Origin: Escherichia coli
GTDB taxonomy: Bacteria; Pseudomonadota; Gammaproteobacteria; Enterobacterales; Enterobacteriaceae
NCBI RefSeq assembly: GCF_003334355.1
Contig: NZ_QOWP01000014.1
Direction: 5' to 3' (one strand)
Length of the DNA: 64,000 bases
The stretch's first letter is position 1; each line of letters begins with the position of its first letter. Below the pieces are notes generated by a model that saw nothing but the letters and a program-made list of their open reading frames with translations, did no database searches and was not told where the DNA came from. The translations under genes were made by a program, and so were the position numbers. Positions 47,809 to 48,078 of the stretch are shown piece after piece.

Positions 47809-48078
47809 AGCCGCATCAGGTATGTAACGCCTGATGCGATGCTGGCGCGTCTTATCAGGCCTACACGTTGCGATTTTGTAGGCCGGATAAGCAAACCGCA
47901 TCCGGCATTCAACGCCTGATGCGACGCTGGCGCGTCTTATCAGGCCTACGCGTTCCGATTTTGTAGGCCGGATAAGCAAAGCGCATCCGGCATTCAACGC
48001 CTGATGCGACGCTGGCGCGTCTTATCAGGCCTACACGCTGCGATTTTGTAGGCCGGATAAGCAAAGCGCATCCGGCAC
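47809..48078. repeat. BIME array: three tandem units of about 86 bp, each a REP pair, between araA and araD
   Basis: Repeated gcctgatgcgacgctggcgcgtcttatcaggcctac...ggccggataagcaaagcgcatccggc. Confidence 0.9.

Follow-up and report, generated by a model that had tools for sequence, protein, structure and literature searches.

The window analysed here is a 64,000-nucleotide stretch of Escherichia coli DNA in which the araA and araD genes of the araBAD operon are separated by a spacer of 284 bp that is filled by a tandem array of palindromic repeats. The array is wholly extragenic, as is characteristic of BIME-2 elements, lying between the end of the araA stop codon at 47806 and the araD start at 48091. 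The two flanking genes are annotated as araA and araD under the match in 5,426 of 5,426 complete E. coli genomes. MG1655 has genes of the same names on either side of its own araA–araD spacer, which is likewise 284 bp long. By comparison, the araB–araA spacer of the window measures just 10 bp.

Tandem Repeats Finder reported one tandem array at 47811–48077, with a period of 85, 3.1 copies, 93% matches, 0% indels and a score of 464. A repeat search returned three copies of 96 nt each, in register at spacings of 85 and 85 nt and with 92–93% identity, together with the inverted repeats expected of palindromic units inside every array unit. An earlier note on this DNA had described a tandem BIME array with three units of about 86 bp, each a pair of inverted REPs, at 47809–48078 between araA and araD inside the araBAD operon. 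These coordinates hold to within 2 nt and the unit length is corrected to 85 bp, while the three-unit architecture (3.1 copies, oppositely oriented Z2 and Y units) and the location (ORF list, and annotation in all 5,426 genomes) were both confirmed.

Parsing of the spacer gave six palindromic units with Y and Z2 in strict alternation, in oppositely oriented pairs and with a period of 85 bp. Each repeat comprises a Z2 unit of 36 nt with the tail CCTAC at its 3′ end, a 13-nt tail-to-tail linker, an inverted Y unit of 29–30 nt with GTAGG at its 5′ end, and a 6-nt head-to-head linker. The left border is the source of the extra 0.1 copy; it holds a degenerate half Y unit whose intact form, GCCGCATCCGGCATTCAGC, is present in E. 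albertii and Escherichia sp. The features are listed below with predicted hairpin energies.

46291–46293: araB stop codon, upstream of araA
46304–47806, plus strand: araA (L-arabinose isomerase) coding sequence, ATG at 46304 (ORF list, E. coli annotation)
47804–47806: araA stop codon TAA
47811–47828, plus strand: left border, a degenerate 3′ half Y unit (CCGCATCAGGT) and head-to-head linker (ATGTAAC), from the in-register copy alignment
47829–47864, plus strand: Z2 unit 1, tail ...CCTAC at the 3′ end, 35/37 to the Z2 reference, hairpin −19.6 kcal/mol
47865–47877, plus strand: tail-to-tail linker 1, ACGTTGCGATTTT, 13 nt (sequence, unit parsing)
47878–47907, plus strand: Y unit 1, inverted, short-loop variant, both Y arms, 28/35 to the Y reference, hairpin −13.2 kcal/mol
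47908–47913, plus strand: head-to-head linker TTCAAC (sequence, unit parsing)
47914–47949, plus strand: Z2 unit 2, 37/37 to the Z2 reference, hairpin −21.4 kcal/mol, holding the IS621 target ATCAGGCCTAC at 47939
47950–47962, plus strand: tail-to-tail linker 2, GCGTTCCGATTTT (sequence, unit parsing)
47963–47992, plus strand: Y unit 2, inverted, short-loop, hairpin −14.3 kcal/mol
47993–47998, plus strand: head-to-head linker TTCAAC (sequence, unit parsing)
47999–48034, plus strand: Z2 unit 3, 36/37 to the Z2 reference, hairpin −21.4 kcal/mol
48035–48047, plus strand: tail-to-tail linker 3, ACGCTGCGATTTT (sequence, unit parsing)
48048–48077, plus strand: Y unit 3, inverted, short-loop, ending 2 nt before the araD Shine-Dalgarno
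48080–48085, plus strand: araD Shine-Dalgarno AAGGAG, 5 nt before the ATG at 48091
48091–48786, plus strand: araD (L-ribulose-5-phosphate 4-epimerase) coding sequence (ORF list, E. coli annotation)

The minus strand of the palindromic array is crossed by two mechanical ORFs (47803–47997, 64 aa; 47994–48215, 73 aa), and no evidence points to their being genes. Four further REP/BIME loci occur in the window, at 3012–3210 (minus strand), 42441–42482, 54977–55058 (plus strand) and 62885–62898, the ara array being the largest of the five. Other Rfam matches at gathering level are SgrS (37048–37274, minus strand), the leucine operon leader (30919–31068, plus), the TPP riboswitch (39031–39130, plus), PssrA (9328–9417, minus) and STnc40 (3612–3681, minus); SgrS, the leucine operon leader and the TPP riboswitch agree with the map expected of E. 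coli around ara–leu.

Repeat class and published work on the K-12 copy

Durrant 2024 gives reference sequences for the E. coli REPs Y, Z1 and Z2, and the units were compared with these. The three Z2 units are identical to the Z2 reference at 37/37, 36/37 and 35/37 positions, and the three Y units keep both Y arms (GCCGGATGCG ... CTTATCCGGCCTAC) around an apex 4–5 nt shorter, matching the Y reference at 28/35 positions. The units thus do align with the REP/BIME references, the comparison that the earlier note had proposed for its reading. Y and Z2 units of these forms are also found on either side of the E. coli RAYT gene yafM (Nunvar 2010, Table 1). All six units carry GTAGG/CCTAC, that is, the GTAG tetranucleotide 5′ of the hairpin foot, and they form inverted REP/iREP pairs, as do RAYT substrates and REPINs.

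In BIME-2 elements a short linker S separates the paired units, and the flanking motifs are of type s, l or r. The linkers of the ara array are short by unit parsing, at 13 nt tail-to-tail and 6 nt head-to-head. By definition, a BIME-2 consists of z2 and y units that alternate and are repeated several times in tandem, joined by short linkers of variable length and sequence, and its copy number varies between strains (Ton-Hoang 2012). BIME-1 elements are instead defined as z1 plus y in single copy with a long L linker carrying an IHF site, and it is this linker to which IHF binding belongs (Ton-Hoang 2012). BIME-1, or RIB/RIP, elements resemble the ara array in being an inverted REP pair of which one member is Y, and differ from it in their Z1 unit, their single copy and their long, IHF-site-bearing L linker. 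Alignment of the array Z2 units to the Z1 reference requires a 7-nt gap, and the IHF consensus WATCAANNNNTTR has 0 matches in 47807–48090 and 5 elsewhere in the window. A BIME-1 reading was therefore rejected: the array has Z2 rather than Z1 units, three copies, linkers of 6 and 13 nt, no L motif and no IHF consensus, and its tandem, alternating Z2 and Y units place it in BIME-2.

Judged by its sequence, the array is virtually certain to be the known BIME-2 of the E. coli araA–araD spacer, made of three pairs of Z2 and short-looped Y units with half a Y at the araA end. It is near certain that it belongs to the dispersed E. coli REP/BIME family associated with RAYT (TnpA_REP), and near certain too that REP/BIME arrays grow and shrink through recombination or slippage between units.

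The K-12 copy is listed as the BIMEs2 'araD-araA' at 66566–66813 (K-12 coordinates) in Table DS3 of Sutormin 2019. Its gyrase cleavage sites number 3 with ciprofloxacin, 3 with ciprofloxacin and rifampicin together, and 0 with microcin B17 or oxolinic acid, and a remark in the row reads 'Espeli, Boccard 1997: 2 cuts'. Among the Table DS3 rows listed, most BIME-2 have no cleavage site, so that araD–araA belongs to the cleaved subset, whose members are described as transcription-independent strong gyrase sites (Sutormin 2019). BIME-2 elements at sucB–sucC and nrdA–nrdB also lie between co-directional genes of one operon and are also cleaved by gyrase (2–6 Topo-Seq sites; Sutormin 2019); these are other loci with other unit numbers, and they are likened to the ara array by position and cleavage rather than by sequence comparison.

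TnpA_REP has likewise been studied on this element. Partial MG1655 araD-A BIMEs (oligonucleotides B315 and B316) served to map TnpA_REP cleavage sites in vitro, and strand transfer on araD-A oligonucleotides assembled multiple REPs (Ton-Hoang 2012). REPIN/RAYT systems, in which REP doublets are mobilised by a Y1 transposase, share the GTAG-headed hairpins in inverted pairs; for the ara BIME, TnpA_REP cleavage is known in vitro (Ton-Hoang 2012).

The MG1655/W3110 element occupies the same locus, with the same 284-bp spacer and three Z2–Y units, and the spacer of the window differs from it by 8 single-base substitutions and 0 indels. Over 1.1 kb, E. coli strains 214-4 and APEC-O117H42 match the window at 100% identity. 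Gyrase cleavage of the K-12 copy in vivo, and TnpA_REP cleavage and recombination of derived oligonucleotides in vitro, are thus published, and both the BIME-2 and its locus are known from earlier work. By analogy with K-12, the array of the window strain is very probably a gyrase site as well. The earlier note had spoken of gyrase/IHF binding sites; gyrase action has the published K-12 cleavage behind it, and the IHF part falls away, as the array is a BIME-2 with no IHF consensus in 47807–48090.

Variation of the araA–araD junction

An allele census was built by megablast of positions 47400–48500 against 5,426 complete genomes, with the ranking sampled at even steps to give 58 full chromosomal loci. 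Three units were present in 24 of these loci (spacer 284 bp), two units in 13 (199 bp) and one unit in 5 (114 bp), while the remaining 16 carried one unit plus a GC-rich, boxC-like palindrome of 54–55 bp (168 bp). Allele proportions were the same in a separate earlier sample of 39 rows, and no array of more than three units was found among the sampled E. coli. The strain-variable copy number anticipated in the earlier note was borne out: E. coli has one, two or three units, and a related Escherichia lineage has four. Unit number tracks lineage, with 2 units in O157:H7 (three rows), 1 in ST131 (one row) and 3 in K-12 laboratory strains; since alleles are lineage-bound, the number shifts slowly and is not hypervariable.

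The boxC-like allele makes up about 28% of sampled chromosomes, as exemplified by E. coli NCTC8623 (L003, 611–665), and lacks two of the three BIME units. Its 54–55-bp palindrome, TTTTCCCCCTCGCCCCTTTGGGGAGAGGGCCGGGGTGAGGGGAAA, which we take to resemble a boxC-type repeat, sits between the single remaining unit and the araD Shine-Dalgarno, which in this allele reads CAGGAG instead of AAGGAG.

In E. coli 2011C-4315 (L007, 4049–5327), a 1,279-bp IS621 lies within the second Z2 unit, at ATCAGGCCT/AC, and moves araA and araD 1.48 kb apart. IS621 is an IS110-family element with a bridge-RNA recombinase, and ATCAGGCCT/AC is its natural target (Durrant 2024). The 11-nt target occurs three times in the array of the window, at 47854, 47939 and 48024. 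In the 1.1-kb search, 117 of the 5,426 genomes gave no contiguous match over the locus, and some of them may bear similar insertions.

A four-unit allele with a spacer of 369 bp was found in a record titled E. coli SCPM-O-B-8794 (L010, 1132–1500). Here GCAGG replaces GTAGG in three of the four Y units, which thereby lack the GTAG tetranucleotide that TnpA_REP needs. That the change is shared points to duplication of an already mutated unit.

Beyond E. coli, the araD locus was taken from 80 species genomes, and the araA–araD spacer was extracted from 79. Escherichia relatives have the same BIME-2: L010 has 4 units, Escherichia sp. MOD1-EC7003 has 3, and E. albertii has 1. A lone REP pair of 82–105 bp is found in Citrobacter, Salmonella, many Enterobacter, Kluyvera and Kosakonia. 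The araD-proximal unit in those genera, GTAGGCCGGATAAGCGAAGCGCCATCCGGCA, is followed directly by the Shine-Dalgarno and is the counterpart of the short Y of E. coli, and its partner is genus-specific. Because the araD-proximal unit is common to many genera and the partner varies by genus, sequence comparison suggests that the short araD-proximal Y is probably ancestral and that pairing with Z2 and tandem amplification are probably peculiar to Escherichia.

Other genera fill the junction differently. Klebsiella, Pseudocitrobacter, Raoultella and others have boxC-like elements in the araA–araD spacer, and Leclercia, Silvania, Phytobacter, Franconibacter and others have a spacer of 47–57 bp with one GC-rich hairpin. 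In ten short-spacer species the hairpin is followed by a run of at least 5 T and scans as terminator-like (L017, 1463–1492; L069, 1455–1486; also L036, L052, L054, L059, L061, L070, L080 and L083). The T-run hairpins of Leclercia, Silvania, Phytobacter, Franconibacter and relatives, in spacers of 50–57 bp, would amount to an apparent intrinsic terminator inside the araBAD operon. Overall, a stable palindrome is present in the spacers of 77 of the 79 species, with z < −2 against shuffles in 70, and these junction palindromes come from at least three unrelated sequence families.

One further locus (L048), from contig NODE_10 of a record titled Chryseobacterium sp. 18061, has an enterobacterial-type REP pair in its araA–araD spacer, and its AraD shares 95% identity with the E. 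coli protein; contamination by enterobacterial DNA or mislabelling of the assembly seems likelier than a true Bacteroidota origin.

RNA structure and a possible role in araBAD expression

The RNA fold of 47795–48100 has a predicted energy of −140.9 kcal/mol, z = −8.0 against dinucleotide shuffles; with this z-score and one unit matching a published REP reference at 37/37 positions, the array lies far beyond chance. In the predicted fold, Z2 hairpins range from −19.6 to −21.4 kcal/mol and Y hairpins from −13.2 to −14.3 kcal/mol. An additional 10-bp stem at 47812–47838, formed by the left border and the first arm of Z2 unit 1, has −15.7 kcal/mol and begins 5 nt past the araA TAA.

Searches of 47300–48600 found no sigma-70 promoter consensus and no intrinsic terminator (GC-rich stem plus U-run), and the base counts of the spacer, 80 C against 81 G, show no C>G skew of the Rho utilisation type. 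If termination occurs at this site, it would therefore have to follow the atypical REP/Rho route. Partition-function folds of five alleles (one to four units and boxC-like) gave the araD Shine-Dalgarno an unpaired probability of 0.47–0.59 whatever the allele. An action of copy number through occlusion of the ribosome-binding site was rejected for this reason, and any dose effect would thus have to come through transcript ends and decay.

Taken as a whole, the reading that we favour, a known BIME-2 array with an added RNA-level role in the araBAD mRNA, is probable. Its more specific part, an RNA-level effect of the array on the araBA:araD ratio, which the earlier note had raised as plausible, is put forward by analogy and tentatively, as a nearly even call. 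The array would be transcribed within the araBAD mRNA, where six to seven stable hairpins would form. These hairpins would block 3′-to-5′ exonucleases, thereby protecting the upstream araBA segment, and would cause a partial, probably Rho-dependent, loss of transcription before araD. The outcome would be an excess of AraB and AraA over AraD, with the unit number, rather than access to the ribosome-binding site, setting the strength of the effect.

The model for this proposal is REP325, a BIME-2 between the co-transcribed genes yjdM and yjdN and the source of naRNA1–6. Deletion of REP325 raises expression of the downstream yjdN about 8–10-fold, with partial Rho dependence; REP325 stabilises the upstream yjdM, which its deletion destabilises. 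Genome-wide, the upstream/downstream expression ratio is raised in 146 REP-containing tandem gene pairs. The REP325 study also found REP effects to be context-dependent and mRNA half-lives not to be uniformly changed. REP325 resembles the ara array in its alternating Y and Z2 units, their orientation relative to transcription, and Z2 units that are identical at 35/36 positions to the ara Z2. It differs in having 12 palindromic units, arranged as six 100-bp repeats in which Y has its full length of 34 nt and the linkers measure 13 and 17 nt; the three repeats of the ara array are 85 bp long, with a Y of 29–30 nt and linkers of 6 and 13 nt. The combined terminator and stabiliser function has been demonstrated for REP325 and would extend to ara by analogy. 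An attenuator role is in keeping with the terminator-like hairpins that other genera have at this junction. A literature search found no report of ara transcripts or proteins with versus without the array, nor of araBAD transcript processing there.

Two considerations limit how strong such an effect could be. Too little AraD is harmful, as L-ribulose-5-phosphate accumulates and is toxic, and strong attenuation before araD is therefore unlikely. Moreover, E. coli lineages have 1, 2 or 3 units, the boxC-like replacement or even the IS621 insertion, which speaks against a strong dose effect and argues that the exact unit dose is not strongly constrained.

The same natural variants, together with the four-unit allele, would also be expected if the array were a neutral passenger: a selfish or dispersed repeat in a permissive spacer, drifting in unit number by slippage or recombination, with an effect on ara expression invisible to selection. 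The constant predicted access to the araD ribosome-binding site across unit numbers and the variable, context-dependent effects of REPs elsewhere favour this explanation as well. Set against it are the stable junction palindromes of 77 of the 79 Enterobacteriaceae species, from at least three unrelated families, in an operon whose araB–araA spacer in the window is 10 bp; the biased expression ratio of REP-containing tandem gene pairs genome-wide; and the action of gyrase on the array in K-12 (Sutormin 2019). On balance, we regard neutrality as somewhat unlikely.

Gyrase action could itself be the main function. The array would then serve chiefly at the DNA level, as a topological barrier or as a strong gyrase site that does not depend on transcription, in a strongly inducible operon adjoining polB, with the RNA hairpins incidental; such a role is compatible with an RNA-level effect. 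The three K-12 cleavage sites, which persist when rifampicin blocks transcription, speak for it (Sutormin 2019). As far as the listed rows and the corresponding text of that study go, only a subset of BIME-2 is cleaved, no loss-of-site phenotype is reported, and gyrase prefers Y units, which in the ara array are a shortened variant (Sutormin 2019). Such a role would, moreover, be missing from species whose junction has just a small hairpin or a boxC-like element, and we consider it unlikely that DNA topology is the main function.

A REP close to a stop codon reportedly stalls the ribosome and has been proposed to trigger trans-translation. A REP stem near the araA stop might accordingly act as a translational brake, stalling the terminating ribosome and lowering the yield of AraA, and the 10-bp stem at 47812–47838 (−15.7 kcal/mol), which starts 5 nt past the araA TAA, is suitably placed. 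This stem, however, is built on the degenerate half Y and competes with the stronger hairpin of Z2 unit 1 (−19.6 kcal/mol), the base of which is 22 nt from the stop codon, and the brake is improbable.

The Rfam model RF02564 (naRNA4) scores 60.2, 58.4 and 34.4 bits on the ara unit pairs against a gathering score of 59.5, so that one unit (47966–48031, 60.2 bits) lies just above and another (47881–47946, 58.4 bits) just below. These scores could be taken to mark a source of nucleoid-associated RNA, naRNA4-like RNAs being credited with binding HU, bridging cruciforms and condensing the chromosome. The model, however, was built on the BIME-2 REP325 (original model from Qian 2015), is in effect a model of any Y–Z2 pair, and scores 71–79 bits at three other BIME loci in the window, including 3015–3208 and 54977–55055, above the ara units. 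Given the marginal score and these higher ones, the match indicates membership of the repeat family only, not an sRNA gene. The HU-linked, nucleoid-condensing function is disputed even for REP325, as REP325/naRNAs had no measurable effect on nucleoid volume and gave no HU-dependent REP–REP contacts (Harris 2026), and a naRNA source at ara is very improbable. An IHF-binding BIME-1 (RIB/RIP element) can hardly be entertained, with Z2 identities of 35–37/37, a 7-nt gap against Z1, linkers of 13 and 6 nt and no WATCAANNNNTTR in 47807–48090.

We therefore keep to the reading of a known BIME-2 array with a putative RNA-level role in the araBAD mRNA. In the wider family, the near-universal junction palindrome hints at a conserved need, a pattern that is suggestive and not proof of selection. 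It is conceivable, if doubtful, that the araA/araD junction is under selection for a stable RNA or DNA palindrome, that convergence brought unrelated elements into it in different lineages (here a REP pair, there boxC-like elements or a simple hairpin that may or may not carry a T-run), and that the Escherichia polymorphism of one to four units and the boxC-like allele is a heritable dial on the AraBA:AraD ratio. If so, the junction palindrome could uncouple araD from araBA through transcript 3′ ends and decay.

As a discovery the array has little value, being a textbook-type repeat at a locus where gyrase cleavage and TnpA_REP activity have already been studied experimentally. What it still offers is a natural allelic series of 1, 2, 3 and 4 units, boxC-like and IS621 alleles, which may serve to relate REP dose to downstream expression. 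The ara operon is apt for this question because its enzyme ratio has a known fitness consequence through toxic L-ribulose-5-phosphate.
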